A program made the position numbers and the translations under genes. Below, piece after piece: positions 88 to 57,086 of a stretch of DNA of 64,000 nt. Position 1 is the stretch's first letter. Each line of letters opens with the position of its first letter. Below the pieces are notes generated by a model. The model was not told the origin of the DNA and searched no databases. It saw only the letters and a program-made list of their open reading frames with translations. The stretch lies in NCBI GenBank assembly GCA_965178125.1, contig OZ237746.1:1116001-1180000 (forward strand), read 5' to 3'. This DNA is from Bilabrum cf. latius (taxonomy: Eukaryota).

Positions 88-3000
88 ATGGAGGCCTACA
101 CTACCATCAAAGTGCTGGGCCGTGGAAGCTTTGGCTAGGCGGTGCTAGTGGAACGCAAGGATGACAGGGTGAGCGTGCTCAAATCTCGAGTCGAGCCTTG
201 AACCGCCTTACGCTGCATCATACCGGTTGCATCAGCACACAAGCAGTATCATTTGTGCGGTCAGCTTTGCTCATGAGCTACGCACCGGTCATTCGCCAGG
301 TTTTATCCCGTTTGGGCCGCCACACGCAGTCGAGGCATGTGATCAAGCAGATTAACGTGACCAGGATGACACCCAAGGAGAAAAGCGAGGTGCGAAACGA
401 AGTCTCAGTATTGAGCCGATTACGAGTGAGAGACAGGTTGCGCGAAGTATCCTTGCTGGTGCCTGATTGGCGCGTGCTTTCCCGTCGAGCTTCGAAGAAG
501 CCCCACTGTTCGCATTGCTTGGGCCGCCGTGTGCTGCTTCCGCTGTCGCAGTGCCCCAATATTGTCGGTTATGTGGATAGCTTCATGCACCGCGGGTCGT
601 TGTGCATCGTGATGGAGTACGCGGACGGCGGCGACCTCGAGAAGATCATCAAGTCCCGCCGCGGCCGCCTCATCTCAGAGTCCAAGATCCTGGACTGGTT
701 CATCCAGCTGTGCCTCGCGCTCAAGTACGTCCACAACCGTAAGGTGCTGCACCGCGACCTAAAGCCGGCGAACATTATGATGACGAGCAAGGGCATGGTC
801 AAGCTGGGCGACTTTGGCATCGCCAAGATGCTCGACAGCACCGCCGCGCTGGCCGCCACCGCCACGGGGACCCCTTACTACGTGAGATAAGAGTTGGTTG
901 TGTGTTTGAACCATTTATTTGGATTGGATGTGGGGGGGGGTTGAGATGGATACAAGAAGGCGATGCAGTGTTTCTGCTCCTGCCCGCGGCCCCTGATGAT
1001 CCGTCTCGCTCGTCCCCCTCTCTCCTCTCCTCTCCTCGCGCGCAGCTGTCCCCGGAGATATGCCGAGAAGCCAAGTACAACAACAAGTCCGACATTTGGT
1101 CCATTGGCTGCATCCTGTACGAGATGTGCACGCTCAAGCACCCCTTCGAGGCCCGCAACATGAAGGGTCTCGTGAGGGCCATCCTGAGAGGGAGGTACGC
1201 GCCCATCGCCTCGGGTTATTCCAAGGGCCTCTCCGAGATCATCGCCTCCTGCCTCAGCCAGGACCCCAGGAGGAGGCCCAGGGTGGACCGCATCCTGCAG
1301 CACCCCCTCCTGCTCAAGCGGATGGAGGCCTACGTGGCGCGGCACGAGGGGGTCAAGGACGAGCTATCCCACACTGCGCTGCACGGGGTGCACTTCAAGC
1401 AGCTGCCCGTGTTTGCCCCGGGGAGGGAGGCACGGAAAGCCATGGAGCGGGCCGCGGCGGAGAAGAAGGACGGGGGCAGGGGGGCGTAGCGCAGCGGGAG
1501 CGGGAGTAGGGCGGGGACAGGGGCGGGCCCTTCCTCCCTGGCTCGGGCACCCGCGGCCGCCCCTGCCCCTGCCCCCGCGCGGGGGCACGGGCACGGCCGA
1601 AGGGCACCCTCGGGCCCGCGAGCGGGGGCTGGGGCAGGGGCCGGGCCAGGGTACGCGCACGCGCGTGCACCATCGAGGGCCGGCGCCGCGGGGGCAGCCG
1701 CCCAGGTGCCGCCTCGCTCCCGGGCTGACCGGGACAGAGACAGGGGCAGGGGCAGGGCGGGGACAGGGGCAGGGGCAGGGGCCGGCGGCTATGCTCGCGC
1801 GCGACCGGGCCCTGGGTCTCGGCCGTCCTCCCGCGGCAGCAGGGGCTCTGCCAGGAGCGGCTCGCGGGACTCGAGGGCGGCGCACGACCGGCTGCGGGAG
1901 CGGGCGCTGGCGCAGGCCGCACGTCTGCGTGAGGCCAACAGGGCGGCGGACGCGAAGGTGAGGGCCGCGGAGGAGGCCAGGAGAGCCGCCGCGGCGAGGC
2001 TCAAGGCAGAGGTCGCGGCGGCCAAGGCAGCGCCGCCGCCGCCGGCCCTCCGCGTGGGCGGCAGCGGGGCAGGGGAGAAGCCCACGGACGGCGTGCAGGA
2101 ATACCTGCGGCGCAGGCGGGGGGAACAGAGGTCCGGGTCAGGTGCAGGATCTGGTGCAGGGAACAACAGGGAGACCAGCGAGGCGCTGCAGGCGGCCAGG
2201 GACGCTGTGGCGGCGGCGGCCAAGGCCATGCGGAGACAGGCCACCGCCGCGCCGCCCCCGCTGCCGCCTCCCGCCGTTGTGGCTGCTGGGCGCGGGCGGG
2301 CCCAGCCGCAGCCCAGCGGTGCCATCCGTCTGGCGGCCGCGCCTCCCGGTCGCAGGAGTACCAGCGGCGGCAGCGGGAGCGCTGCGGCTGGATTGTCGAC
2401 TGTCGGGGCACCCCCCCTCCCCCTCCATCGCGATACCGGTGCCGGTGCGGGCGCGGGTGCGGGCCTGGGTGCAGCCATGTCTCCAGCGGCCAGGGCGCGA
2501 AGGGCCGTGCTCGGGGACAAGGACAGGGACAAGGACAAGAAGGGACAGGCTCCCATCGCTCGCAAGCTCGACTACGGTGGTGGCTCAGGCTCAGGCTCAG
2601 GGTCGGCCCCCGTGAGCACGCGAAGCAGCGGGAGCCAGGGTGGGGGCGAGGGCGAGGGCAGGATCCGGGGACCCACCCGGGCTCCTCCTCGGCTGCAAGC
2701 AGCGGGGGCAGCAGCGGCGCCACCCGCCGGCTCCCCCGCTGCCCGGAACTTGAGGCAGCTGCAGCTGGGGGCTGCTGCGGAGAGCGAGCAGGAGGCGCGA
2801 GCGGAGCGTGATTTCGCGGGTATGATGGTCCAGTTCCAGCAGCTGCGGGTGCAGAATCTGATGGACGGCATCAGAGAGACGGGGGAGGCCATCGGGGCGG
2901 GGGCGGGGGCGGGGGCGGATGGTGCTGGCGCGGATGGGGCGGAGGGTGGAGGGAGGGGGGGACAGGATGGAGGGAACATGCACGCGGATCGTGACGAGTG

Positions 3001-9887: not shown

Positions 9888-10050
9888 ATGGGTAGATCAT
9901 TGTTTCCCTTGCTGCTACACGTCATGTGCAAGCGGCCACAGTTCAGTTGGTGATGAGTCACTGATGACGTTATCGTGAAGATGAAGATGCAAACAAAATC
10001 TTCGGATCCGAGACTGCACGGTCACCAGCCGCGCAAAGCGTTCATCTGCG

Positions 10051-30191: not shown

Positions 30192-30385
30192 GTTTAAGCC
30201 AACATTGTTTGCGGTGTAATGCCTCGGGTCGAGTGCGGAGACGCTGCAACCGCTGCATTTTTCGAAAGGCTCCGGGTTCCCAGACATTGCTTGCCGAGTA
30301 AAGCAAAATATCAGCAGTAAATTTCAGTATATTTAATTGAATATGTAAGGATTCGCTGCTGCGTGCGTATCATCGCACCGCTGCC

Positions 30386-33265
30386 ATGCATTGCTTGGAA
30401 CACTGCAATGATGAGAGAGTTCGATTTGGAATGCCGATGCGCAGGCCGAGAAAGCGAGGCAGAACCCGCAAAAAAAAGCAAAGGCAACAAAAAACGGCGG
30501 CAGATGCGCGCAAAGAATTGTATCGTTCGCAGGAGGACAGGTTTTGGTCCACTCTTTCCTCTGAATGCAGAGGCTTCGAGCGCAATGTCGAGGCACTTCG
30601 GCGAGCCTGCGGTCTCGGCATGGGAAGCCGCCACCGGATCGTTGGCGCAACCAATCTGATTGAGCTTGGATCTACTGTACTGCTTCGTCTGATGGCGGGC
30701 GCGATCCGCCTTGGAGACAAGGGCGACCGTCCTCCTGTCCCCGGCACTCCGGACATGTGCGGCGAGTACGGCATGTTTTTCTGCGACATGTGCTCGATGC
30801 TGCAGGTGGACGAGCCCAGGCCCAGGGACGGCTTCACAGACATGGCCGCCCGCGACCAGCGTGTGGGCCCGAATCCCCTAGGCCCGGCCACTGTGTGCAT
30901 CACGGCAGAGGCCATCCGGCTCATGCTCGTCCGGGTCCGCATCACGAGCAACTACCTCTACGGGCCAGAGTTCGGGGACGGGCCCGCCCGCCTGTGGCTC
31001 CCCAGCATGCAGGACGGCCGCGGCTCGTTCCTCCGGCGGCCCCCCGCTGAGGCTCTCCTGCAGTGCCCTGCAGTGCCCCCCGCGGGGCCCATGCTGCAGG
31101 ACGAGGCCGGGTCCGAGTGCGACATCACCATGGCCTCGCAGTTCTCAGGGGCGTGCCTGTCGGCCTGGTCCATGCGTCCCACGGACGACACGGTGTGGAA
31201 CCACCACCCGAACGAAGAGCGGGTCGCGACACGAACCAGGGCAGGCAACCGCCACGCCGCGCACACGTTCTTCGAAGGGCATGAGGCTATGGTGCAGGTC
31301 GTGCCGGGCATGGCCCGATGGGTCAGGAGTGCGTTTTTCCCCGGCAAGGGAGCCATGGACTGTGCCAGGGGCATACCCAGGCCCGACCTCCCGCCACGCA
31401 TGCTCCCGGGCGCGCCCCTGCCCAAGCACCCCGCCACGGCGGGGGAGGCTGTTGGGTTCCTGGCCCCCATGCAGCTGCTGGCGGCCGCGTGCATGTACGG
31501 GGGCGCGGACGATCTGGCTGCGTACGAGCTGAGGAAAGTGAAGGGTGGCCATTCGATGACGATGTCGTCGCCGCACGAGGTGCTGCCCGTGGTGGGCAAC
31601 CAGTGCAGGGGTCGGCTGGAGACGATCTGCGGTGCGTTCTGGCTGGGCCTGCAGTACCTGGACATGCGAACGGAACAAAAGGGTGCGACTTCCTCCGGGG
31701 GTGACGGCGGGTCTGTCTCAGCCGGGCAAGGAGGAGACGTAGAGGGCGAAGGCGACGGCATGGCGGCCTGTGGCGGGTCAGAATCAGTAGGGAACGATGG
31801 GGGCAAGCCTGCAGAGAGCGAGGAGAAGGAACGCGGAGGCGCTGGAGACGATGGAAGGGAAAGGGAAGAGGGGATTGGGGCCGTACACCCGCACGCTGCA
31901 GCAGAACCCGCAAGCAGCGGAGCCGGTGCAGATGTAGCCGGTGCCGGTGACGCCCAAGCCGAAGCAGAAGCAGAATCCAGCGCTGCAGCATAGCCCGGCA
32001 GCCCATCCCAGCGGCCCATGGGTGCCTACCCGCAGCCGTCCGACTACCGCCTCATCCGCTGCATGGCCGAGCTCATGGACGGGGCTGCCATGGCCATGCT
32101 CTACCTGGCCATGCACAGGGCAGTGAGCAGGCAGGCGGTCACGGGCGAGACATGGCACCTGTACTTTGGTATGCTGCCGAACCTGCTGCAGGACTGCGTG
32201 GCATTCGAGACGAGGCACATGGGTCAGCTGGAGGACAGCGATGCGGAGGATGCCATTCCGTGGGCGCGCAAGTTCACAGGGCAGCTCAAAACCACCACCA
32301 AGGCGGCAGGCGTGGCCGATGCGTACCGTCTGCTGCTGCTGCAGACCGGTGGTTGGCACGACGGGATCCGCGCGGCCACCATGCGGAGGAAGGCCGAGAT
32401 GGAGAACAAGGACAAGGACAAGGACAAGGACGAGGCCGGGTGTGCCGGTGCCAGAGCCGGCGATGGAGACGGCACGAGTCGGGGTGGCGTGGCGCTGGAC
32501 GAATCTGGCAAGTGCCTCCTGGAGCGTGTCCTGGATCTGTGCGAATAGGGGCGATCCAGTGGGCTGGACGTGTTCAGCAGGGGGGCACTGGGTCGGGTGC
32601 TGGCGGCGGCCGTGTGGTATCATGAGGAGGATGATCTGTCGGAACACGCCGGCAGGCTGCGGACGGTGCTGGAGGACCTGTGGGGTGCGGTGGATGATTC
32701 ACTGAGCAAGTACGGGGGGCATGGGCTGGCAGGCATCACGGACATGCGTGTGGACGAGTACTCGGATGCTTAGGTGGCCGAGGATGCGAGGGTGGTGAGC
32801 AGCAGGAGCAAAGATGGAAAGAAGGGGTAGGAGGATAAGGTGCTGCCCGACCTGTCAGACAGGGGCAGTGGCAGGTGCGCCTCTAGGCCGATCGCAGGGT
32901 ACTTTATGCTGCAGCTCCCCACGCACGGGACCAGCGTGCAGCACTACGTGGGCGCGATCGAGCTGCACGCGGCATGCTTCCAGAGAGGCATGCAGAAGGA
33001 GGTGCCCATGCTGCCCAGGTCTGTGCACCTGGCCATGCGCGCCCCCCGCTTCAGGCACTGGGTCAAACAGTACGAGTGGCTGTGCGTGGATCCGCTGCGG
33101 CCGCCGAGCGAGGCGGGCAGGGGGAGGAGGACGGGGCGGTCTGCTCTTCGAAGGCACACTCTTTCGGTAGCAGCCGCGCTGAAGCGGCTCGTGAGCATCG
33201 TGTCGACGGATCGGGTCCTCGCCCTCTTGCGGTTCCGGCAGGCGGCGGTTGCGACCGCGATGTAA
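30386..33265 (+). CDS. Uncharacterised protein, tandem paralog A (basic NLS-like N-terminus)
   Basis: ORFs 30386, 32018, 32570 and 32840 are in one frame and are joined by TAGs; colinear similarity to paralog B; TAA stop. Start is uncertain. Confidence 0.7.
31319..31536 (+). repeat. 218-bp block duplicated at 34354-34571 between the tandem paralogs
   Basis: Base-by-base reading shows apparent identity from tgggtcaggagtgcg to gagctgaggaa. Confidence 0.9.
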
Positions 33266-33522
33266 TGCGCCTTGTTCGCAGCCGTTGGTTGTACGATACA
33301 GCCTGCGAAACTGCCTGCATCGCCTTTCGTCGCGTTTAGAATAATGTGAGGATTCGGTCAAAATTGCTAGTACTCGGAGCATGTCAGTGATTTTAGGGGA
33401 ACTGATACACTTGGCCGCCCAGTGAACAGCTTCGCAGGACTCGAAAAAGCAAGAAAGGCAAGTCAAAGACAAGGGCAAAACGGGAGTGGGCAGCTCCACC
33501 AGGGCAGCCTCGAAAGTACGTA

Positions 33523-36162
33523 ATGTTTCCCGAACAAGTTTCCATTGGATCAAAGACGTGGGGATTCCTGAAACTAGAGCGATCTTAGCTTCAGCAGCGA
33601 ATCGTTGATCTCAGGCACTGCATGAGGCTAGCGACAGGGCCTACGATGCCTTCGAACGAAAATATCAATAATTCATCCGATCCACGAATACAGTTTGCGG
33701 GTGTGGGCGGACTGCTGGGAGGATTCATGCGTCTGGCTTGTGGCCCACCGGGCACGGCCAGACCAGGGAAGTTCTCGGGCAGCCCTGGGCATTACAGCTC
33801 CGCACACTACTGTGCCTCGTATAATATGACTCGCCATAGATCGAATGAAGGGTACGATCAAATGGTAGCCGCAGACGGAGAGATCAACGACACGTGCTTG
33901 GGCCCGCCCACCGTGTGCATGACGGCTGAATCCATCCGGATCATGTTGGCCAGGTACATGGTAGAGACTAGGTTCCTGCACGGGAAGCAATTCGGCGACG
34001 CTTCTTCCCTGTGGCTGTAGCCACCGCGGAGGGCATTCGGCCGCTCCTGGCTTCCCTTCGAAGAGTTCCTGCGCTGCCCCGCAGCCCCCATGCGCGGCCC
34101 CACGCTGCATGACGGCCGCGGCGGGCGTCTCCCCGGCAAGCTGTCGCACCTCGTGTCCACCGCCGTGTGCTCGGCCTGGAGCATGCGGCCCAGCGACCGG
34201 ACCCCGTGGCTTGAATCATTCGTGGACGGGGGCTTCTGGGAGACATGGGACCCGGACGAGGGAGGCTCTGCCGTGCCACGGCGCATATTCGCTGACCACA
34301 ACCTGAACTACGGGAGGGAAGCAGCTCGGGCGTTCATGCCCGGGCTGATCGACTGGGTCAGGAGTGCGTTTTTCCCCGGCAAGGGAGCCATGGACTGTGC
34401 CAGGGGCATACCCAGGCCCGACCTCCCGCCACGCATGCTCCCGGGCGCGCCCCTGCCCAAGCACCCCGCCACGGCGGGGGAGGCTGTTGGGTTCCTGGCC
34501 CCCATGCAGCTGCTGGCGGCCGCGTGCATGTACGGGGGCGCGGACGATCTGGCTGCGTACGAGCTGAGGAACAGCATGAAGCGCAGGACAAAGGAGCACA
34601 GGCCGAGACCAGAGGCTGACGACTACAACTACTTATCCGAGTACGAGTGCGACATGTACGAGCGCATGGGCTGCGACCCGGATGACATGGTGGACTCGTA
34701 CGGGTACGGGGGGGAGGAGCCGGAAGATCCCGACGATGAGTCGCTTGGACTGTCGCCGGACAGACACGGTATTACAGCCACCAATGCGCTCAAGAGGCTT
34801 GAGACAATCTGCGCGGCATTCTGGCTGGGCCTGCAGTACCTAGACATGCGAACCGAAGCAGGGCGGTCAGCAGCAGCTACAGCCCAAGGAGCAGCAGGGG
34901 GGCATTCATTGGCAGCTACTCCTTGCGAGAGTGGTGCAGGCAATGGTGGTGCGCCGGTGACTGGCAACGATGCTGCAGCTGGGGCTGCTTCAGCTGCCAG
35001 CCTGCACAGTTCTGTGGGTGCCTACCCGCAGCCGTCCGACTACCGCCTCATCCGCTGCATGGCCGAGCTCATGGACGGGGCTGCCATGGCCATGCTCTAC
35101 CTGGCCATGCACAGGGCAGTGAGCGGGTAGGTGATCAAGGGCGAGACATGGCACCTGTACTTTGGTATGCTGCCGAACCTGCTGCAGGACTGCGTGGCAT
35201 TCGAGACGAGGCACATGGGTCAGCTGGAGGACAGCGAGGCGGAGGATGCCATTCCGTGGGCGCGCAAGTTCACAGGGCAGCTCAAAACCACCACCAAGGC
35301 GGCAGGCGTGGCCGATGCGTACCGTCTGCTGCTGCTGCAGACCGGTGGAGCGATGGACAAGCTTCGAGAGGCCAGTGGGCCTGTGAGTGCTGCCGCCTCC
35401 ACTGGCAGCGGAAGGATACCGCTGGGAAAACTGCACCAGCCCCTGCCATCCACTGGCAAGCTTGCTGGGGGCGAGTAGACCGGGGCAATGCCGCTTGCTG
35501 CCGTTGCTGCGCCTTGCAAGTGCCTCCTAGAGCGTGTCCTGGATCTGTGCGAATAGGGGCGATCCAGTGGGCTGGACGTGTTCAGCAGGGGGGCACTGGG
35601 TCGGGTGCTGGCGGCGGCCGTGTGGTATCATGAGGAGGATGATCTGTCGGAACACGCCGGCAGGCTGTGGACGGTGCTGGAGGACCTGTGGAAGCACGCA
35701 GATGACTGGATCATGACGAATGGCGGCCATCCGCTGGCGCGCCCGTATGGCCCCGCCGCACAGGCCGGTGCACCCTCCGAGAACTACCCCAGGCCCGCGT
35801 TTCTGATGCTGCAGCTGCCCACGCACGGGACCATTGCGCAAGGCATCGTAGGGGCGATCGAGCTGCACACAGCGTGCATGGACCGGGGTGTGGGCGATGT
35901 GCCGTGCCTACCGAGGTCGGTGCAGCTGGCCATGCGAGCTCCCCGCTTCAGGCTATGGGTCAAAACGTACGAGTGGCTGTGCGTGGATCCGCTGCGGCCG
36001 CCGAAAGAAGAGCGCAGGGGTCGAAGGAAGACCGAGCCTTGGCTCCGTGGATCCACGCTGTCGGTGGCAGCCGCTCTCAAGTCTCTTGTAGACAGGCGGG
36101 CGGCGGAGCGAGCGAGGTGCGTGGCGCTGTTCCGGTCAGCAGCGGTGCGCTCGGCCCTGTGA
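33523..36162 (+). CDS. Uncharacterised protein, tandem paralog B
   Basis: ORFs 33622, 34090, 35131 and 35578 are in one frame and are joined by TAGs. Shares GPxTVCxTAExIR, WVRSAFFPG..YELR, GAYPQPSDY..LLQTGG and WLCVDPLRPP with paralog A; TGA stop. Start is uncertain. Confidence 0.7.
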
Positions 36163-36354
36163 TGGCTAAGGGTGGGATATGAGTGTGGTGTGACGCACAA
36201 GAGAAGTCTTGTCTGCACGGCATTGAGCCAAATCTTGCGAGAGCGCAGTGCGACCCCACGACTGCCCCACAGGTTTGCTGCTAGCACACACACGCCGCAC
36301 CAAGCTGCTGGCACGCGGAGTACAGAATCCACGCCATCCCCACCACTGCCAAGC

Positions 36355-38133
36355 TCACTGCGCCCACGCAGCTCCCAAAATTCCGTCCACCACCACCTCC
36401 GGCTTGTCCAGCGGCATGCTCAGCGAGCAGTCTGCCGCGGTGCAGTAGTGGTAGGACGCGTTCCCCGACGCGTTCGCCACCAGCCGCTCGTCCGTCTGCA
36501 TGTAAGCGGTCAGTGCCATGCGCTCGTCACACTCCTCCTGTGTCTTGGCCGGGGGCTCGTCGTTGCAGACGGCTGCGCGGGTGCGGTTCGACATGATCTG
36601 CAAAATGGGCATGCCCATCGTCTCCGGCGAGGTCTCGTTGAAGATGCCCAGGTCGTACCTGTTGATCTCCTCGTCGTACTGCGGCTTGAAAGTGAACCAC
36701 TGCACCGTCCACGTCTTGGGCATCGTGTATTGGATGCGGTACTCGTCGTACCGCTCGGGCAGCGCGTACATGCTCTCGTTGGCGGGCACGAAGATGGGCG
36801 TCAGGCCCCACGGCACGGCCAAGCCCTGAAGCAGCGCAAAGATGATCCGGCGGCCCGCCAGGTCCTGGTCCTTGTACTCGTTCATTCTCTTCTGGCTCCA
36901 GCCCTTCACGAAAGCCTCCGACTTCCACTCGATGCCCAGGCTGAACGCCTCGATGAACACGAGCCCCCGGACCAGCTCGGGCGACCGCAGGGCAAACTCG
37001 TACATGATCCCGGCACCGCCGCCCCAGCCCACCATCACGGCCTGGTTGGCCCCTTCCTCCTCCAGCAGGTGCTCCACCAGCGGCTCGTAGTACGTCATCG
37101 GGTCCACGTCCTGCCCCACGCTGTACCGGTCCGAGAAGCCCAGCCCCAGCTTGTCGAAGGAGCAGCTGCGTCGGCCTGCCTCGGCGAGACGGGCCTGAAG
37201 AGGCCAGAAATCGGCGCTGCCGTGCGATGCATCCGCATCTATGATCAGCAGCGGGTGTTCCGGACCGGCCAGCGCGGGTCCCTCGCAGTAGTACATGACC
37301 TTCTTGGTCCCACTGGCCTCCCTTGCCTCCAGGTGCACGAACTGACCGCGGGGAGGGAACGAGGCGATCCAGTGGGCCTGCTGGATGGACGCGTTGGCGA
37401 GCAGGCACGAAAACACAAGTGCCAGGGCCATGTTCACCACCAGATACCATCCCAGGCAGCAGCACCAGCACGGCCGCTGCTCCGTGTCCTGCGCCTCGGG
37501 CGTGTAGCAGGGCAGCGACTGGGAGGGCCAGGGGCCCGACTGCGAGGCATTGGCGCTGGTTTGCGACTTGGAGACTTGGTTACCGCCGTTGACTGGGGCA
37601 TGCGAGTCGTACTGTCCTTCATCTTGCGTCATTGCTGCGCTCGCTTCCGCCGTGGCCGCCGGGTGCGGCGACAGCGGAGCAGCCATGTCACCACTTTGCT
37701 AGCTCTTTCCGGGTTCGTTGACGTAGACTTTAACCAGCGACACGCACAGCAGTGATACCGCCAGCGATGCCAGTACGAAATTGTCAAAGCGCTAGTATAT
37801 CGCCTGTGTGATGGCGATCACCAGCCAGATGGCAGCTAAGATGCCGTAGTACGCGCCCTGCAGCCCGCAGCAGGAAGATGCCGCCTGAATAGATCGTGCA
37901 GCATTGTGTGCTGCAAGCAGACCGAAGAAAAACACATGCGCCGCATACCATGTCGTGGTGCCCATGTCCATCACCAGCACTGGTCCGGCATTGGCGACAT
38001 AGGCTGCCGATACAGTGGCGTACACAACCCCAAAGACAGAAAAAAGCAGCCCACCATACCAGGCAATTTCGTTGATCATGTGTGTAGGAGCTAGCGATGT
38101 GAGAAGGTACTCCTAGGGATGCGGAAGTGACAT
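36355..38133 (-). CDS. Multi-pass membrane protein with C-terminal alpha/beta-hydrolase fold
   Basis: The hydrophobic ORF 37792-38079 continues through TAGs (37792, about 37699) into ORF 36355-37686, which carries CSFDKLGLGFS, VMVGWGGGAG and VRGLVFIEA; TGA stop. Confidence 0.75.
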
Positions 38134-38294
38134 ACCCGCATCGCTCCCAACTTGAAAAATCCAACGGGCATTTCGCGGCAAATTTTCGCCGAATGGAAGG
38201 GGAACGCTCCAGAACTTTCTGCGAATCTTTCTGAACTATCAAATTTGAATGATGAAGACTTACAACGTGGCATGATCGGCCAAACACTGCCAAA

Positions 38295-41243
38295 ATGGGC
38301 GTCTCGTCCCTGTACTACGGGTTTTCGTGGGCGATTCGTGCGATAAGCATACTATCTATATCATACATTCATCCTGATGAGATTTTCTAGTCGGAAGAAA
38401 TCGCAGCTGGATGGATCAACCGGGACAGCGTGCGGGTGCCATGGGAGTTTGCGAATTCAAGCGCCCCTGCACGCTCCATCGTGGTCCCTGCGCTGGTCTC
38501 GGCCGGGCCACTATGGGTATCAGGGCTGATTTCCTCAGTCACTGCCGCGGTCGTTGGAGTTACTCACCAATTGTGGCTGCGTCGAGCCTGGTGCGTCGCT
38601 CTCACAGGACTGTGCGACGCATGCATCTGGGTAGCCTGCAGGAATGTCCGGGCGGATCCGCTCCCATGTCTCGCCATATTTGCATCGTGTTGGCCAGTGA
38701 TTGTGTTTGGAGGACACGCGTTCAGCAACACGTTGGAGGCGACCGTCGTAGCAGCTGCGATCGCATGTGTCGCATGGTATCTCCGCGCAACTGCAAATTC
38801 CGGTGCGCGCTTCACGGCACCACAACAACAAAGCAGGCAGGCAGTCGCTGCTTTGATTGGTATTGGGGGTGTAGCAGCTCTAGGGTGTGCCGTACGCATC
38901 TCATTTCCCGTGTTCGTTTCGGGGTTCGCGTGCGTGTCCCTCGGCGCCCTGTGGCTGCACGGTGCGGAATCTTCTTCTCGGGACAAAGGCACGCCCAACT
39001 CGGAAAAAGCCTCACCAGATCCGCAAGAAGTCAAGAAGGTCGATATAGGCATGCCGGTGATTGGCGATGCGAGGCCTGTTGATTGCGGCTGCTCGGCGCT
39101 GGCACGCATCGCGTGGGGAACCTGCTTGGTGCTCGTTTCCTTCGCCGCCACGACGCTGGCCATCGCAGTCGCGGATTCTATGGCTTGGGGCACTCTACAT
39201 ATTCCATATTTGCAGTCAGGTGGTCAAGGAGAAGAAGGGCTGGAGCACGCCGCCGTGCGCCCCGCTCTCCCGGTTCCTGAGGACGCCACGTCGCCCGCGC
39301 CCTCCGTCGAGCTGGCCGCGCTGGGGATCCCGGGGAACATCGGCACCGGACGCATCGTGTTTCCTACCCTGGGCAATCTGCTGTACAACCTGGACCCGGC
39401 CAAGACGGCCACGCACGGGCTGCACCCCCGCTGGACGCACGCCGCCGTGAACCTCCCCCTGCTCTTCGGGCCGGTGGCTCTCCTGTTCGCATGGAACGGG
39501 GCCCTCCTGTGCGCGCGGCTGCTGCGGGCCGGCAGCCTGCTCCAAGCCACCCGCGTGCTCCTGCGGCGGCCCCTCCGCAACGGCGCCCTCCTCTCCGGCG
39601 CCGTGTCCCTGGCCGTGCTCTCTGCAGCCAACCACCAGGAGGCCCGCTTCCTCGTGCCCATGGCCGTGCTCGTAGGGCTGGGCTGCGGGGAGTCGCTGAT
39701 GCCGGGGAACAAGAAAGGGGGTCAGAGGGACAGCCGTGGGCGAGGGGGCGATCAACAGGATGAGGATCAGGCAGCTGCCCCGCCCACGCCCACGCCCACG
39801 CCCACGCCCACGCCCACGGGGGGGGATGACTTGGACGTCGACATGGCCCTCCCCGGGATGCTGCGCGGAGTCTTGCTGGCTGCGTGGATGCTCACGAATG
39901 CGCTCGGCGTGGTGGGCTTCGGGTGGCTGCACCAGGGTGGCGTGCTGGCGGGGGCAGCAGCGGCGGGGAGGCGGGTGATTCTGGAGGAGCTGGCGAGGGC
40001 CGTGGGGGGCAGCGCTGGGGAACTAGAGGAGGAGGATAGGGGGGGGAGCGAGAGGGGCTCTGTGGTCGGTGTGATGGAGGACGAGGGGGCTTCTTCCCTC
40101 GCGATAGATGGAGGGCAGGTGGATGCCCATGGGCTGGGCAGCAGTGTGGGGATCGGGCTCGGCGGCGCGGCGGCGGCGGCGGCGGTGCTGTCCCAGATGG
40201 GCGGCAGCAGCATCGGGACTGTGCTGAGCTACAGCTCCTACACGCTGCCCAGGCACAGTGTGACGAGTGGATGGAACAAGGACTTCTCTGGCGCAGGCCT
40301 GGGCATGCTGCGGTCGGGTGCGATGGAGGAGGTGGGCGGCGGAGGCATGGACTTGGACACGGACGTGGGCGTGGGCGGGGACCTGGAAGGGAAAGGGAAT
40401 GGCGCGAGGCTGCTGATGGTTGACGCGGCCTCGCCGAGCGTGCACCGAGCATTGTAGCTCGAGTGCGCGAGGGAACCGAGGGAACAGCGGGGTGGGGGGA
40501 GCTAGCAGGCCAGCGGTAGCGAGTCAGAGTCGGAGTCAGCGTCAGCGTCAGGCTGCATCAGCGTGCCTCGGTGCGCGGGCCCTTTCTGCGACTCTAGGTT
40601 CAGGCACGACCTGAGCTTTGAGTCGGGATCTGGCTTGGATGACACCGCGAGGGGCATGGCCAGAGGCGCGGAGGGCGGTGAACAGGCGAGGTAGCCTGCT
40701 GTGTCCACGCTCGGGTTCCTAGCCTCTGGCGTGGGTGGGGGAGCCAGGGCGATCGAGATCGTGGACGTGGATGGTCCGGACGAGGGTTCGCTGCGGTTCC
40801 ACCTGGAGCGGTCGCTGTTCGGCGGCGCCGGGCTCTTGGACTCGGAATCGAGTGCCAGCGCCAGTGCCGGTGGTCATCCAGGGGCCGGGGATGAGAACCC
40901 CGCCACGCTTGTGCTGGCACCCGCCTCCGTCAGGTTGCACGTGGAGGGGGCGGCCAAGGGGGCCTGTCACGCGCACGACAGGTCAGCTGTGCTCCGGCGG
41001 CTGGAGAGCGTAGGGCCTCATTTGTCTGGGGAGGCGCCCCCTCCTCTGGGCCGCGCCCTTGCTGCCAGGCTTGGCGCGGCGTGGGCTGGAGCTGGAGCTG
41101 TGGGCCAGGGTCAGGGCCAGGGCGCTGGAGAGGGCGTGAGTGGGCTGCTCGAGGCGGCGGGGCGTGGGCTGCGGGAGGACTTGAAGGTGGCTGAGGAGAC
41201 GCTGTGGCTGGACGTGTGGAGGGTGCACTGCGAGGCAGTTTGA
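38295..41243 (+). CDS. PIGZ: GPI mannosyltransferase 4 (PIG-Z/Smp3, GT22)
   Basis: SYIHPDEIF(TAG)SEE, PWEF, FSNTLE, NLLYN..HGLHPRWTH..VNLPLLFGP, HQEARFLVP and FGWLHQGGV; four TAGs; TGA stop. Confidence 0.9.
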
Positions 41244-45374: not shown

Positions 45375-48300
45375 ATGAAACGACCCGATTCACCTCTGCC
45401 CCCGGGCCGGATCTGTCCGATGGATCCGAATCCGCTGGAAAATTCACCACTTTGTGCACAATTTGGACCGGAGACACAGGACACGCGCCGTCCTGGTCCA
45501 GTTGAACGTGTGTAGCTGAGAGGTTTTACCACGCCGTAGTGTAGATGGATGCAGTTTGTGGGGTCCAGCTTCGTGGCTAAGAATTTAGATCGTGATAGCA
45601 GTGGTCAAGCGGATCTCATCAAAGAGGTGCCGACGAATACGCGGTTTGCTTACTTGTTTTGCAATACAGATGGCGGATCATTTCATGAAGTTGCTGAGAT
45701 GGTCAAGAGAAAACCAATTCAACACCTTTTACTGGACACTGGTGCCTGTGACTTTATGCAACAATTCGAGGCTACAACCGCTGGCGAGGTCATTCGCAGC
45801 ATATTGTAGAGATCTAGCGCCCTAGATTATGGGACCATTCGATTAGAACTTTGGATTGACCCACTGTTTTGGCCTGAATGCTCCACAGCTGGCCTAGCGA
45901 TATCGCGCATGTCAGAGTAGGTCATGCAGATAAGGGTGAGGTCCGATCGCCAGGTGGCTGAGCGCTCCAGTGGATTAAGTGCTACTAGGGAGATTGTGTC
46001 TCGAAGCCGCACGCGAGGATCCAAGTCCAAGAGCAAATACGCGCTGAGCGGGATGAGCCTCACCGATGCGCTGACCAATCCGTGTCGCGCGAAAGGGATC
46101 CCTCTGAACGCGTTCTGCGCGGTACTGGACGCCGTCTCGCGATGTCACGAACTCGTACACCTGACATTGCCGGATTGGAGCGATGAACGAGTCAGAGGAT
46201 CGGGAGGGGAAGATGGGGAGCCGAGTGCGACAGCAGCGCGAAATCGAGTCGAGGTTAGTATTCCAGCATCGATGGGTGTATTTAAAGAGTTTGTACAGAT
46301 GCCCACTTGCCAGTTGCGGTACCTCCGTATGGGCTGCAAGGCGCCCGATGCCCTGGAGCACCTGCGCACCGCCTTGGCTCGCAACGCGTCCATCGAGCAA
46401 CTAGAGCTCGTGGGCTGCCACAGACTGTGGGGCGAAAACCTTGACGCTATTGCAGGGATTGTGCATGGGTGCGTATCCCTGCGACGACTCTGGGTGACAG
46501 CATCACTTGGAGACTGGAGCTTGCATGACCCTGCAGAAGAGAGCGCCGACACGAGCAGTGAGATGAACAGCGGCAGCGACACGGGCGAGTTCGAACTCGA
46601 GCTCGCCCCCGAGGCGCAGGCCAGTATTGCTAGTGCCATAGCGTAGCACCCCAGACTCCGCGCCTTGCACCTCCAAGGCGTAGAGCTCCATCCGAGCGCG
46701 CTCAGAGCTTTGGTGGCGCATGCCGCCCCTCAGGCTGGCAGGGGCAGTGGCGGGAGACCCCGCCCAGGAGCCCTGAGGCAGCTGACGCTGGCCGACTTCG
46801 GGGCGACTACCAAGGGAATGACCGCACTAGCACAAGGTCTGCAATCCCCGCGGTGCGGCATCGAATCCATCGTCTTGTCGGGGGATGGGCTGGACCCTGC
46901 GAGCTACGCCGCATTGGCTGATGGTGTAGCCCGGTGCCCCACCCTCCGTGCCTTGCACTTGCAGGGGGGTCGCTGGAGTCGGGAGTAGATGGGCGCGAAC
47001 GACCCCCTACTCAGCGCTGCTTTGCAGGGAGACCCTCGAGCCTGCAGTCTCCGCAGACTTAGCACAGGCGTTGCTGTCACTGACACGTTCGTGCAGCTGG
47101 GCCGATACCTGGCTTCGCCACGGTGCGAGTTGGAATCGCTTTCAATCAACGTGATGGAGGGCTGCAATGACCCGTCTACTCTTGACACGTTGTGCAGGGG
47201 TGTAGCGGCCAATGCAAGCCTGCGGGAGCTGCGGCTGCACAATCCAAGGGGCACGCTGGCGGTTGCTCTGGTGGAGGCGATTGCCAACGGAAGTGAAGAA
47301 GGAGAATCTCGAATTGATTGCCTCAGCATGATTGAAGTGTGGGGCTGCAACCCAGAACTATACAACCCACTGAGCGCGGCACTGAGCAGGTGCACCAACT
47401 TACGGCAGCTGACGCTTGCGGGGTGCGATGCAAACTTGAGGCTGCTCGAACATACCTTGGAAGATCCAAGTGAGAGACACAGGCTGTGGGAGACGATTGC
47501 AAGGCACCAGCGCATGGAGCACCTGGACATAAGGCGGTGCGGGGTGCATGGCGATGACCTGCGGCTGCTTGTCGAGAAGTGTCGCAGCCTGAGGGTGCTG
47601 CGGCTGGGAGGCCTGGGCGTGCGCGACGTGGAGTCCTTCGTGGTCCCCGCACTGCAGTCGCTGGGGCGAGATGTCCATGCGTGTGGCTATTGCCTCAGGG
47701 GCATCGATGTGCACGTGCAAGCGCCTCTGTATACCATGCAGATGGAAGGCGGCCGGAGAGTCAAGCGCAGTGACGTCAAGGCACAGGCAGTCCAACTTGC
47801 CCTAGTCGAGGCCACCGATTCACTTCCCTTCGTGTCGATCATTGAGCCAGATACGGGGAACAGAAACGTGATGCCCTTGCCTGCGGGTTCCGTCCGAAAG
47901 GGGGCAGAGTCGAGGCAGGCCACTGCCGCCCGTTGGATGGCGGAACCTCCTGCGTGCACACGGGCAGGCGCCCTGCTTCGCATGGCCACCCACGGGCTGT
48001 GCGTGTCACCGTCTGACGCATGTGCTTATGCTTTGGCTGCGTTGAGCACCGCTCGTGCTCGCAGTGATGTGGTCGGTCTGGTCGGTCTACTGGACGACCT
48101 TGCGGACTGCTGCAACCCGCGCGTGTCTTCGTTGGACGTGCAGGGGGGCTTGGCGTGGAGAGACGAAGGGGGTATGGCTGAGGCGCTGCCATTCAATGAG
48201 TCTAGAGCGTGCGGCTGGAGCTGCAGCGCGATGGACCCCGTGCGGTAGCACGGCGTGGATGGTGTGGTCCTCTTCCGGGAAGCCATTCCGGCGAGTGTGT

Positions 48301-48707
48301 TCGGGGCCGCTGCTCTCCTGTCGGCTGGACTGTCGGCGGCCTCCGATCTCCTGGACGATCGCAGGTCTCCGTCCACTGGCGCGGGGGTTTCCTTGGCTCG
48401 TTGCGATGCGGATCGATTGCGCGAAGCGGCAGACGGCGTGCGTCGAACGCGGGCTGTCTCGCAAAAGGAGCGAATGTTGATGTGGAAGAGAGCTGTAGTG
48501 GCGGAGAGGGACGCGGGGATGGTGTTTTAGGCCGCGAGTCAGGGGTGGCCCATGGAGCTCGCCAAGAGGTTGAAGTTAGGACGGTTGGCGCGTGGGCTAG
48601 AAAAGATGGGGGTGTTGAAGGGTGGTGCAGTCGCAGGACCGCTGGAGGCAGCTCGGCTGGGTGGCCACGATGAATGCGTGCGATTGCTGGAAGATGCTCT
48701 CCGGTAA
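45375..48707 (+). CDS. RNI-like leucine-rich-repeat protein with a C-terminal ankyrin-like motif
   Basis: Repeated LxxLxL units (SIEQLEL, SLRRLWV, TLRALHL, SLRELRL, NLRQLTL); ends PLEAARLGGHDECVRLL. Five ORF fragments in one frame are joined by TAGs (8 in total); TAA stop. Start at 45375 or 45420. Confidence 0.7.
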
Positions 48708-48832
48708 CTATTACAGCCTGAAAAAGAAATATCCCGGATCGCAGTCTGTCACGAGAGACTACTCAGACATCACGCCAAGGGAAAGCCCGCCCCTAGCAAG
48801 GGGCACCAGAGGTGCCAAGGCTGCAGACTCAC

Positions 48833-51800
48833 TCACTTGCTTCTCTTCAGCCCGACTCCAGGCCGGCGCTTACCACCGCTCGATGTACGCACCAGCCCGA
48901 ATCCGAACAGGGTTCCCTTGGCCGACACCGAGCTGGGGCTCTTCCTGCTCGTACCTTGCTTGCTCCCTCCCGTGCGGCCCAGCAGCAGTCCCGCAGCTGG
49001 GCTTGAACTGCGCGCACCGCCTGCCGGTCGCACAAGCCCCACGCGAGGCCTAGCCTTGGGTCGGGCTGGCTCCGCCACCTCGACCTTCGCTCGGGGTTCC
49101 AGGTCGGATTCATCTCCATCTCCCGTCAAGTCTTCCACCTCGGATGATTCGGACCCCGAGTCGCTGCGGCTGCCATCGACCGCATTGGCTCTGTTCACCC
49201 CCACCGCCCGCATGGCTTCCTGGATGGAGGTGGGCCTGCGGCCAGCGACGCGCGGGAGAGTGGCCTCAGCAGCGTCTTCATCCAGGGTTATTACAACGGA
49301 GGATGAAGACGAGGATGACCTTGCTGACACAGGGCGGTTGCTTCCATTGGCGCGCTGTGGCGGTGGCCTGGCCGAACCAGAAGAGTCCGCTGCGCCGCTA
49401 CCACCGGCCGACATCATCGCCATGAACCCGCCATCGTCCCCCTCCATGGCATCCTATTCAGCCGAGAGACCAGCGGGCGCAGACAAAGGAGCACCGCGGG
49501 CAGCCCCTCTTCCGGGGCTGGTGGTGACTTTGAACACGGACTGCCCTTGCTGAAGCGCTGTGCGTGCCACCTGGGCTGCCCCGTATCCACCAGCAGATCC
49601 TGCTGCCGCCGCCTTCGAAAATGGTGAAGGCAGGGCAGGCGCGCCCGGCATGCGCGGTAGCTTGCCCCGAAGCTCCTCGGGGTAGCGGATGCGGGCCAGC
49701 GAGCTGGGATGCACCTCGCCAGCCGCCACCCTCCTGGCCAGGACGGGGTCCGCGAAGTCTCTCCCGAAGGCAGCCCTGACCAGCTCTGCGATGGTGGCGA
49801 TGCGGGCCGTGGTACCGGGAGAGGCGCCAGTGGGACCCGCCGCCGCTCGATCCACAAAGGACTAGGACTAGGACTAGGACTGGAATTGAGACGAGGACAC
49901 GGGCTGGCTACTAGCCGAGAAGAACGACTGCACCGCTTGCTGGGGCTGGGGCACGGAGGCCTGGCTGGCCACCTGATTTCCGCTGAGGCTGGAGCTCTCC
50001 GCGATGAGTCGCTGAGAGGAAGTCGCCAGCGCGTCCCGCTGCTCGCTGCGCCGTGCATGTGCCTGGGCGGCGGCACTCGACACCGGGGTGTGCCGGGCCC
50101 CCAGCGAGTGGCGCCCCGTGGCCGTGGCTGCCTCCTATCCCAGGGGGGGCACCCTGAAGAAGCTCGAGATGGAGGACGAGGATGAGGCACCCTTCGGCGG
50201 CGGTTCGCTGCGACTGCGCTTCTTGTCGGGCTACTCCTGCTCTTCGTCTCTGTCACGGTTCGAGGCGTCATTCTAGTCCTCTTGACCGCTCGGTGGGGTG
50301 CCGTCTGCGGGTGCTTGGTCAGCTGCATCGCTGATAGCTGCTGCTGCGCTGCTCGAAAGGTCATGACTCGATACAACGCCCGGCGCCTCACCGCCAGGTG
50401 TGGTCTTGGAGGAAGAGGAAGGGGATGAGCCCGAGGTCTGGGCAAGTCTGGCCAGCGCGGCGGCGGCAGCTCCCCTTCGGCTGCGGCGACGGGCAGGTGC
50501 TGCTGTCGAGGGCAGTGCATCTCGCGGTAGTATATCTTGATCGATGGAGTCTGCTGGCCCATTGCGCGCCCTTGGGTCGCTGACACCATTCCTTTGAGCC
50601 TATTCATGGCCTGGGGACCCAGACTGAGCCTCTGCAATTGCGGCATGCTCGGAAGCATCGTCACCGCCACCGTCGCCCTCGCCCTCGGAACCGATCCCCA
50701 CGCTCTCCACTTCGTCTTCCATCAAGACCTGGCCCCGCTCCTACCCTGAGCCACCCCTTGTACTCTCTGCAGGGAAGAGATTCTTGCGAATGTCTTGCGG
50801 GCCAGGCCCCTTCGTACCCCCACCGCGCAGCCCATCCAAGGATGCTAACCCGCCCCTGTCAACTGCTGCTGAGCCCGTGTCTGCACCAGCAGCCGCTGCC
50901 TCCTGTATGATCCCCGACACGCTGCCAGCCATCGCTGAGGCTGGCTCCATGCCTGCCCCAGCTCCCGCCTCGGCTCCTGCCCCTGCTCTGGGCCTCACCT
51001 TGCTCTGGGTCTAGGGGGTCGACAAGTAGGACGAACCGTCCCCAGCCGACTGCCCCTGCACAGGGGAGATGCCCAGCTGGCCAGCGCCGTCATCGCACTC
51101 ACCCCTGGCAGCAGCAACCCCCGCAGACGCAGCCGCTGATGCCGGCACGATCGACTTGGTCTCTGACGCGAGCGGGCCAATCGCTCCCGCCACTGCTCCA
51201 TCCGTTGAAAACACCGTCGCCGATTCCTTGTCCTGGCCAGCAGTCAACGCCACCCCACGACCGGATCCCTGCTGGCTGACCCCTCCCATGAGCGGCCGCA
51301 TGGGGGTTAGCAAGATGGCCTGCCGCTGGCTGGGCACGGGCGTCAAGAAGGCGGCCACCTGCGCCCGCGGGTCGTAGACCACATGGTGCAAGAAGCAGCT
51401 CTCTGCCATCCTGAACCGCATTTCGTAGTCCACCGGCACCTCTACGACCTTCTTCGCATTGCCGCCCCTCCTGCGCTTCTTCCCCAGCCCCCCTGCTGCC
51501 TTCTGCCGCACGGCAGCCACCACCCTCAGCACCCTCTTGTCGTCCTCCGTGTCCCTGTACCTCCACACGAGCTCGGCGGCCGACACGGTGCCCACCCCCG
51601 GCAGCGAGTTGATGTAGTCGCACCCGCTCAGCACGCACACCTGAAGGAACTGGCGTGCCGTCAGCCGCCGCATGATCCGCAGGAACTTGCTGCTGCCTGC
51701 CAACCGGCCGGCGGTGGCCGCTACAGCCTTGCTCCCGCCACCTTTGCTCCCGCCGCTGTTGCCCTCACCACCACTCGTGGCGTGTTTCGAGCCTTGCGTA

Positions 51801-55120: not shown

Positions 55121-57086
55121 ATGGCTGCATCTGGAAGGAGTGCCTGCGATGCCGTGCTTGAAGCTAGGAAGAAGGATTATAAGAAGAGTATCACGAAGGA
55201 AGAATCGCGGATGAGCAGGACTTAGACGACGATTTAGATCCGGAAGAAGAAGCAGGAGGAGATGCGCGCGAAGCGCCGCCGACGAGTTGCGCCGTCTCAA
55301 CCGGCCGGATCGGCTGGCGAGGCGGGGACATCATCTGATACAAAGGGTGGTTTCTCTCACGAGATCCGCCCGGTTACCACCGGTCAACTGCCGGAGGAGA
55401 TCTAGGATGCGCACATGGGCATCTACAGATAGCGTGAGCAATCGATCGAACCAGCGTCTCGAAGCGCAGGTGCTGCCACGTTAAAGGACCATGATTTGTT
55501 GTATTAACAACTTGAACATTCCGCTCTACTCCGCTCGCTTTCCTTTGCCTTCGCGTTGTGCTTATGCCGCAGACTTGCTGGGCGAAGACCCGAAGACGCA
55601 GCTGGAGGCTGCATTTTGCGTGCGGAAGCTGCTCTCTAGGGAATCAAGGCCTCCCACAGAGGCATTCCTTAGGACGGGCGTGCTTCGCCGCGTGGTGGAG
55701 CTCATGCAGCACACGAGCGAGGCCCGCATGCAGTTCGAGTGCGCCTGGATCCTGACCAACATCGCCTCCTCGGAGCACACGAGCGTCGTGGTGGAAGCGG
55801 GGGCCATCCCCGTGCTGGCGCACCTGCTCAGAAGCGCAAACGTGGACGTCAGGGAACAGTGCATCTGGTGCCTGGGCAACGTGGCGGGCGACGGGCCCCG
55901 CCTCCGTGACGCCGTGCTCGCCACCGAGCACACGGTGCCCAACATCATCCTCAACATCCAGAACTCGCCCAGGCCCTCCGTGCAGAGGAACGCCGTCTGG
56001 GCACTCTCCAACATGGCCCGCTTCAAGCCGGCGCCCTCCCCCCGGGCCGTCCTCGCCGCCGCAAAGGCCTTCTCGCACCTGGTCATGACCACCTCGGACC
56101 AGGAGGTGCTCGTGGACAGCTGCTGGGGCCTGCAGTACGTCACTGACGCGGGGCCCGAGCTGGTGGATCTCGTGGCTAGGTCTGGCGTGCTGCCCCGGCT
56201 GGTTGGGCTCATGGCGGAGGGCTCCAAGTCGCTGGGCACTCCGGCGGTTCGGTGCGTGGGGAACATCGTCGGTGGAGACGACAGCACGACGGACCGGGCC
56301 ATCGAGGCGGGTATCCTCGAGGCGCTGGGCCGCATGCTGGACTCGCCCAGCAGGAACCACAGGAGGGAGGCCGCATGGGCGCTGTCCAACGTGGCGGCGG
56401 GGACCAAGACCCAGATCGCCAGGCTGTGCAGCACCCCTGGCCTGCTCGCCAAGCTGGTGGAGCGCATGGCCACGGACGACCAGCTGGTGCAGAACGAGGC
56501 GTGCTGGACCATCTGCAACGTGGCCGCCTCGGGCAGCCCCAGCGACGTGCTGTGCCTGGCGCAGGAGGGGGCCATCCGGTCCCTGTGCCTGATGCTCACC
56601 AAGCGGCTGCATAAGGTCCTGCACATCTCGATCGGGGGTCTCACCGCCATCTTCAAGCTGGGCAAGGACAGGGAGGCCAAGGGGCTCTCACCGGCCTTTG
56701 ACGATTTCTACGCCGAGTTCGAGGAGGCCCAGGGGGTGGAGGTCATGGAGGAGCTGCAGGACCTCGATGACGAGGAGCTGGCCAAGAAGGTGGACAAGTT
56801 CGCGGACGAGTTCCTGTGCGTGGAGGACGAGGAAGGCGAGGACGGCATGGGGATGGGAGGGGGCGACGAGAACAACGTGGCCTAGGGCGGACAGGCGTTC
56901 TCCTTCGGGATCACCTCGGGGGCGGCGGCCGCTGCCTCGATGAAGCCGCCGCTGGGGAGCAGCGCTGGGGGAGGGGACGGGTGGGGCAGCTTCGGGCAGG
57001 CGGCCTCGGCTGGCAACACGGCTAGCGCCACTGCCGGCGGAGAGACGGGCGGCTGGGGCGATTTCTCGGGGGCCTCGTGGAACTGA
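55121..57086 (+). CDS. KPNA: Importin subunit alpha; exons 55121-55433 and 55573-57086
   Basis: IBB domain RKKDYKK..RT(TAG)TTI(TAG)IRKKKQEE..KRR; ARM repeats (FECAWILTNIAS, WCLGNVAGD, WALSN); phase-1 intron 55434-55572; TGA stop. Confidence 0.93.

Follow-up and report, generated by a model that had tools for sequence, protein, structure and literature searches.

A stretch of 64,000 nucleotides (nt) from Bilabrum cf. latius (contig OZ237746.1, positions 1,116,001 to 1,180,000; this whole stretch is referred to as the window) carries two tandem paralogs, A and B, whose long reading frames are crossed by TAG codons and end in TAA and TGA, respectively. The question raised by this locus is which of the three canonical stop codons still terminate translation, and which amino acid is specified by one that does not. 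The combined data are best described by a cytoplasmic code in which UAG is sense, most likely glutamine, while UGA acts as the main terminator and UAA as a further stop. We assign this reading a probability of about 0.8.

With TAG counted as an amino acid, the frame of A comprises 959 codons with four TAGs and that of B 879 codons with five, and neither TAA nor TGA occurs inside either of them (coordinates in Table 1). The two products have 58% of their residues in common, in a patchwork of blocks that are nearly identical and blocks that have diverged. An earlier note on this DNA had claimed an exchange of CAG and TAG at a homologous site, as well as a TAG retained by both copies in the context GAA TAG GGG with conservation continuing downstream, and had proposed a pairwise codon alignment as a check. 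In this alignment each of the claimed pairs falls into one column: the coordinates of the CAG/TAG exchange are correct, the retained TAG is present in both copies, and an additional CAG/TAG column was found within a gapped, poorly conserved stretch. The part that did not hold is the use of downstream conservation as independent evidence. Tracts of 98–100% DNA identity connect the otherwise well diverged paralogs and suggest, as far as the sequence can tell, gene conversion or very recent exchange. Both the shared TAG and the CAG/TAG pair are located inside such near-identical tracts, and conservation downstream is therefore trivial there. Within the middle tract (starting at 32019 in A), five of the six differences cluster inside 15 nt at the CAG/TAG pair. 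Still, two signals within the window are independent: the TAA- and TGA-free runs of hundreds of codons, and the distribution of A/B differences over codon positions 1, 2 and 3 in the diverged C-terminal block (24/22/40), i.e. an excess at the third position.

Independent evidence for TAG as a sense codon beyond the near-identical tracts is supplied by an outgroup. The database proteins P0021 and P0023 originate from one metagenome contig, the 6,031-nt version of which (L001, G+C content (GC) about 55%) represents a diverged relative. Its homologue of A and B comprises 956 codons with eight in-frame TAGs, and the contig also carries a Dispatched/Patched-like gene with nine more. P0021 ends before residue 493 and P0023 before residue 880, in both cases exactly at a TAG, which is the expected product of a standard-code gene caller. 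Comparison with the relative gave nonsynonymous (dN) and synonymous (dS) divergences of 0.29 and 2.46 for A, and of 0.23 and 1.86 for B. Saturated synonymous sites in combination with low dN indicate purifying selection on the family in the TAG-sense frame. A three-way codon alignment identifies one TAG common to all three copies, at a C-[E/A]-TAG-G site (column 886), and a TAG of A that faces CAG in the relative (column 962); the A-specific segment around the latter is thus coding and not an intron. Conversely, a TAG of L001 faces CAG in both A and B, within a conserved Y/F-P-Q-x-S-D-Y-R-L motif preceding S-D-Y-R-L-I-R-C-M-A-E-L-M-D. At the column of the CAG/TAG exchange between A (32132) and B (35128) L001 has GCA, and P0022, a short B-like database protein that spans this column without a stop, has Q opposite the TAG of B. 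No Pfam family was matched by A, B or the protein of the relative, and a search of copy A against 1.84 billion representative proteins returned three matches, all of them metagenome pieces. A and B are real, selected genes of a family without known domain, and they look expressed. In L001 the gene copy is the last one before a telomere-like end, so the family may be subtelomeric in the relative; no telomere-like repeat as in L001 was found in the window.

The use of TAG as a codon is not restricted to the paralogs. An open reading frame (ORF) scan of the window with TAG read as a residue yields long frames packed closely along both strands, and nearly all genes of the window hold in-frame TAG. 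Functional cores are among the places where TAG occurs, as in a GT22 mannosyltransferase motif and right behind the glycine-rich loop of a kinase. Sixteen frames with a total of 17,031 codons contain 81 TAG, 0 TAA and 0 TGA in frame; as these frames were selected as TAA- and TGA-free, the zero counts are partly a matter of construction, which weighs against taking them at face value. The two off-frames of the same ORFs provide a reference, with 96 and 68 TAG, 22 and 19 TAA, and 222 and 219 TGA, respectively. TAA and TGA taken together thus amount to 244 and 238 per 17,015 codons, or about one per 70 codons, and at this density the observed frame lengths (up to 2,825 codons, with 13 TAGs) are not attainable by chance. 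Public contigs of four runs show no differing letters over 32143–32843 and 38298–39810, including the TAGs, which excludes assembly errors as their source. The former interval is crossed unspliced by public-run contigs and, if the public runs are complementary DNA (cDNA), for which the GT..AG joints in their contigs speak, this suggests that the TAGs are not removed by RNA editing. In summary, it is near certain that TAG is a sense codon in this window.

Judged from the sites under constraint, the amino acid encoded by TAG is quite probably glutamine. The only deeply conserved TAG column available is found in the gene for a GT22 mannosyltransferase, where TAG occupies the position of the Q in an IHPDE-x-F-Q motif. 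All 17 homologues compared, which come from fungi, diatoms and other sources, carry Q in this column; it lies in an ungapped motif and has variable neighbours, and the site is the strongest datum for Gln. In the paralog family, CAG or Q is the partner of TAG at three conserved-context columns. Serine, to which TAG is assigned in the nuclear code of Scotinosphaera (PMC8271138), does not fit the GT22 site. No TAG was found on a conserved Ser column, Ser being opposite TAG at variable columns only.

Among the alternatives, a TAG that is sense but encodes glutamate (lysine or serine being less likely), with TAA and TGA as stops, survives best, albeit as an unlikely reading. Several observations weigh in its favour and against Gln. 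E stands opposite the TAG at 56883–56885 in the 97% identical importin-alpha P0036, and pieces of an orthologue of the leucine-rich-repeat (LRR) protein have E opposite the TAG at 46644–46646 (P0157) and K opposite that at 45807–45809 (P0158). Among distant homologues of solved structure, KMT2C/2D have E, EXO1 has N, glycine oxidase-type enzymes have E, K, Q and K, and Dispatched proteins have D, N and E opposite TAGs. Moreover, one TAG is located within a poly-E run, summing BLOSUM62 scores across all of the 17 TAG sites gives E (29.3) a slightly higher value than Q (26.8), and the E fraction around TAG (0.076–0.082) is like that around E codons. Flanking composition, the context of plus/minus 3 to 10 codons, per-gene correlation and internal repeat partners do not separate Gln from Glu. 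It should be noted that a single first-position change turns TAG into CAG, GAG or AAG, so that unconstrained sites should show Q, E and K partners regardless of the meaning of the codon. The alignments with solved structures (XPG, SET, DAO and Dispatched) cover TAGs on variable columns only, and when the BLOSUM62 sum is restricted to the seven well-aligned sites, the order is reversed (Q 20.8, E 15.3). The invariant Q of the GT22 column and the CAG or Q partners within the paralog family speak against Glu, and it is the constrained sites that favour Gln. The paralog comparison by itself cannot tell Gln from Glu. The earlier note had presented the two paralogs as a self-sufficient internal test of the code; its conclusions on TAG as sense and TAA as stop hold and are strengthened by the outgroup, and the distinction between Gln and Glu rests mainly on the GT22 gene.

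Two coding hexanucleotide arrays involving TAG were observed on the minus strand. The XPG/Exo1 gene contains a (CAG TCC)(TAG TCC)x3 array at 49864–49878, which reads as (QS)4 with TAG as Gln, and (TAG GGC)x4 plus one further TAG is found within the SET-domain gene (59815–59829).

With UAG as glutamine, CAG and TAG would be synonymous and freely exchanged by a C-to-T transition, as in the paralogs and the relative, and homologous C-termini would bear either TAA or TGA as both still terminate. Decoding may proceed via a CUA-anticodon tRNA that probably arose from tRNA-Gln, together with a release factor eRF1 that would no longer recognise UAG. No tRNA genes were detected by ARAGORN in the 64-kb window or in L001, and the window does not encode eRF1.

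It is very likely that TAA and TGA both terminate. The C-termini of A, B and the relative differ in position by no more than one residue in the three-way codon alignment and are set by TAA, TGA and TAA, respectively. The ends of A and B had been placed correctly in the earlier note, in the same C-terminal column, and its claim that TAA is still a terminator is corroborated by the relative: past the TAA of L001 a second TAA follows two codons on, and no TGA occurs up to the telomere-like terminus of the contig, so that the protein of the relative must end at TAA. Similarity of A and B in frame beyond the TAA, which the note had regarded as a sign to the contrary, is absent; the DNA similarity stops 2 nt beyond the stops, at 33267 and 36164. 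TGA closes the importin-alpha gene at the residue where P0036 and P0037 likewise end. Fifteen of the 18 gene frames in the window are closed by TGA and three by TAA, one of the TAAs lying directly before a TGA. CAA and CAG occur in a ratio of 116:514 in the window and of 17:33 in L001. A Gln codon TAA used in the same proportion should occur in frame about 18 times in the window and about nine times in L001; none was seen in either. Reading through TAA lengthens the frames little.

A dual, context-dependent TAG, i.e. sense within genes and a stop at some gene ends, is very unlikely. Such codes are described for other protists (PMC4967479, bioRxiv 10.1101/2022.04.12.488043), and our ORF procedure is blind to genes ending in TAG. 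Still, wherever homology fixes the C-terminus it coincides with TAA or TGA, as for A, B, the relative and importin-alpha, and the 64 kb contain no case that requires TAG as a terminator.

Slightly less probable still is a code that assigns both TAG and TAA to Gln and leaves TGA as the sole stop (NCBI table 6), with TAA being rare at 65% GC and for that reason resembling a stop. The prevalence of TGA at the gene ends would agree with this, as would two open stretches past TAA. The first follows the TAA of the LRR-protein gene, where the frame remains TGA-free for 281 further codons (48705–49550). This run overlaps the 3' part of the XPG gene in antisense orientation; open frames are common in such positions in this GC-rich DNA, and we regard the run as a side effect of that. 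The second concerns the paralogs themselves, as the frame of A is open for 27 codons past its TAA and, via a spliced joint, continues in phase into B. One contig of public run X5 joins 33112–33345 to 33438–33715 and thereby bridges the last 150 coding bases of A, the TAA and the 5' region of B; the joint removes 92 nt with GT..AG ends. The absence of in-frame TAA in the window and L001, the common end of A, B and the relative at one residue, two of the three on TAA, and the lack of TGA between the TAA of the relative and its telomere-like repeats speak against a sense TAA, and the phase from A into B has an explanation of its own.

This explanation is provided by the start codon of B, which is split by the 92-nt intron: AT at 33344–33345, G at 33438. 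The spliced frame enters the ORF of B in phase, and this arrangement accounts for the continuity of phase between A and B. The same layout is found at A, where run X8 provides a contig with 30344 linked to the G of the start codon at 30445, and, by sequence, in L001 (AT at 2742–2743, gtaagt...ctgcag, G at 2899; a phase-2 GT..AG intron of about 155 nt). The introns of A and B occupy homologous positions and begin similarly at their 5' ends (gt[a/g]aggattcg). The spliced N-terminus of A reads M-P-R-K-R-G-R-T-R-K-K-K, and a similar basic stretch opens all three spliced N-termini. The true start of A and B consequently lies upstream of the first in-frame ATG in the unspliced ORF. Splicing at these public-contig joints is deduced from their GT..AG ends, the library type of the runs not being on record. 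A fused A-B protein formed by readthrough of TAA was considered and rejected, given the split ATG of B itself and the same layout at A and L001. Either the transcript of B overlaps the coding end of A, or the transcript of A continues into B.

The standard code, with the TAGs as pseudogene stops, unrecognised introns, or sequencing or editing artefacts, is scarcely conceivable: the TAGs of A at 31991, 32771 and 32828 and those of B at 33586, 34018 and 35476 do lie in gapped or poorly conserved A/B segments that might be introns, but against this stand the 81 TAGs in 16 frames without TAA, TGA or frame shift, one TAG within the GT22 catalytic-loop motif and another at the glycine loop of a kinase, the conservation of the A-specific segment in the relative with CAG in place of TAG 32771, the unspliced and unchanged passage of public contigs across 32143–32843, and the purifying selection downstream of the TAGs.

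The reading of UAG as sense, most likely glutamine, with UGA and UAA as stops applies to DNA with eukaryotic gene content. GC varies between 59% and 72% across the window (about 65% overall), and the set of domains is typically eukaryotic (Table 1). Introns are present but few, as seen from a split kinase gene and the two GT..AG joints in public contigs. No Rfam family was matched in the window, and P0036, when scanned against viral contigs, gave no match. The window is best explained as nuclear DNA of a GC-rich, gene-dense and intron-poor eukaryote. Immediately downstream of B, a 530-codon open frame (36163–37755, plus strand) runs antisense to the membrane protein with an alpha/beta-hydrolase domain; it has no family match and is probably not a gene.

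Table 1. Positions of the paralogs, their codons and introns, further genes of the window, and the end of the relative's contig (window coordinates unless L001 is named)
Feature	Position	Strand	Remarks
Paralog A, overall	about 30343-33265	+	
Paralog A, AT of split start codon	30343..30344	+	run X8 contig joins 30344 to 30445
Paralog A, intron	30345..30444	+	100 nt, GT..AG, phase 2; X8, 1 contig, shorter side 28 nt
Paralog A, main exon	30445..33265	+	TAA stop at 33263-33265
Paralog A, in-frame TAGs	31991, 32546, 32771, 32828	+	CAGs at 32132 and 31010
Paralog B, overall	about 33344-36162	+	
Paralog B, AT of split start codon	33344..33345	+	79 nt past the TAA of A
Paralog B, intron	33346..33437	+	92 nt, GT..AG, phase 2; run X5 contig joins 33345 to 33438, shorter side 234 nt
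Paralog B, main exon	33438..36162	+	TGA stop at 36160-36162
Paralog B, in-frame TAGs	33586, 34018, 35128, 35476, 35554	+	
CAG in A opposite TAG in B	32132-32134 (A), 35128-35130 (B)	+	AGC AGG CAG GCG in A, AGC GGG TAG GTG in B
Second CAG/TAG column	31010 (A, CAG), 34018 (B, TAG)	+	gapped, poorly conserved stretch
GAA TAG GGG in both copies	TAG 32546-32548 (A), 35554-35556 (B)	+	also TAG in L001 (4934-4936); C-[E/A]-TAG-G site, column 886
TAG in A opposite CAG in L001	32771-32773 (A), 5156 (L001)	+	column 962
Identity tract A/B	31319-31536 = 34354-34571	+	100% DNA identity
Identity tract A/B	32019-32352 vs 35015-35348	+	98.2% DNA identity
Identity tract A/B	32508-32683 vs 35516-35691	+	98.9% DNA identity
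GT22 (Alg9-like) mannosyltransferase gene			Glyco_transf_22, Pfam PF03901, E 2.9e-35
TAG in GT22 gene	38388..38390	+	at Q of IHPDE-x-F-Q motif
NEK-type protein kinase gene			split by intron; Pkinase match on downstream exon
TAG in NEK-type kinase gene	136..138	+	right after glycine-rich loop (GRGSFG), first visible exon
GH88 (unsaturated glucuronyl hydrolase family) gene	9985-11316		complete, without any TAG
Membrane protein, alpha/beta-hydrolase domain	36355-38238	-	4 in-frame TAGs
PI3/PI4-kinase gene			PI3_PI4_kinase domain match
RhoGAP domain gene			domain match
XPG/Exo1 nuclease gene			XPG_N/XPG_I domain match
KMT2-type SET domain gene			SET domain match
Importin-alpha-like Arm-repeat protein gene			Arm domain match
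DAO-type FAD oxidoreductase gene			DAO domain match
Pyridine-nucleotide disulphide oxidoreductase gene			domain match
L001, contig end	5627-6031 (L001)		68-nt repeat x2.9 at 5756-5952
L001, (TTAGGG) repeats	5958-5986, 6013-6029 (L001)		x4.8 and x2.8, respectively

UAG-only reassignment itself is already described, and the window is a further case. UAG specifies Gln, with UAA and UGA as stops (the pattern of NCBI table 15), in Iotanema spirale (PMC5304391), and the same UAG-only code is reported for Protocruzia tuzeti and two phyllopharyngean ciliate lineages (PMC11687900). As in these codes, UAG alone appears to be reassigned in the window, apparently to Gln, while UAA and UGA terminate, so that UAG and UAA no longer share one meaning. 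In I. spirale, however, UAA is the primary terminator (PMC5304391), in contrast to the predominance of UGA observed here (15 of 18 frames). The window also differs from ciliates in appearance, owing to its GC of 65% and the TTAGGG-type contig end of the relative. Repeats of the TTAGGG type are not known as the ciliate telomere type. A change of both UAR codons to Gln (NCBI table 6) is known from ulvophycean green algae, hexamitid diplomonads, Streblomastix and many ciliates (PMC11687900, PMC5304391, PMC6299283), and is also the published code of Amoeboaphelidium protococcarum (PMC5304391, PMC6299283). Such a code agrees with the window in TAG as Gln and TGA as stop, but not in TAA, which is not sense here. 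The Scotinosphaera code, with TAA and TGA as stops, is alike in reassigning TAG only, but differs in the amino acid, the GT22 column being Gln and not Ser; UAG-only changes to Leu as well as Ser are known (PMC11687900, PMC8271138).

No description of a GC-rich non-ciliate eukaryote with UAG-only Gln was found in the literature searched, subscription papers and supplements being outside the search. The lineage is not placed by the GT22 or importin-alpha matches: the 11 named GT22 matches comprise eight fungal sequences, two from diatoms and one from a flatworm, and the best named importin-alpha matches, at 36–42% identity, come from plants, diatoms and fungi alike. The mostly fungal GT22 matches, together with the mixed labels of the public runs that contain this DNA, provide a tentative lead towards the aphelids, and the organism may belong to a group that is published as UAR-to-Gln. 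A separate origin of this split between UAG and UAA, not reported to date, in a GC-rich non-ciliate with TTAGGG-type ends and UGA as main terminator, is conceivable, with the odds leaning somewhat against it.

Reassignment of UAG alone is rare, being recorded for one fornicate, one rhizarian, Scotinosphaera and some ciliates (PMC5304391, PMC11687900). UAG and UAA nearly always shift their meaning together, and UAG-only cases argue for mechanistic separability of the two. Another such case, with long genes almost devoid of introns in a GC-rich genome, would contribute an independent data point; it would also be convenient to study, as the reassignment is directly legible in genomic ORFs. On the practical side, standard-code gene callers cut genes at each TAG, as illustrated by the database entries of the relative, and a standard-code annotation of this genome would consequently be badly fragmented. 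If the lead towards the aphelid group is true, the published assignment of UAA in that group would need correcting to stop, and the interest of the case would rise further if phylogeny shows an independent origin.

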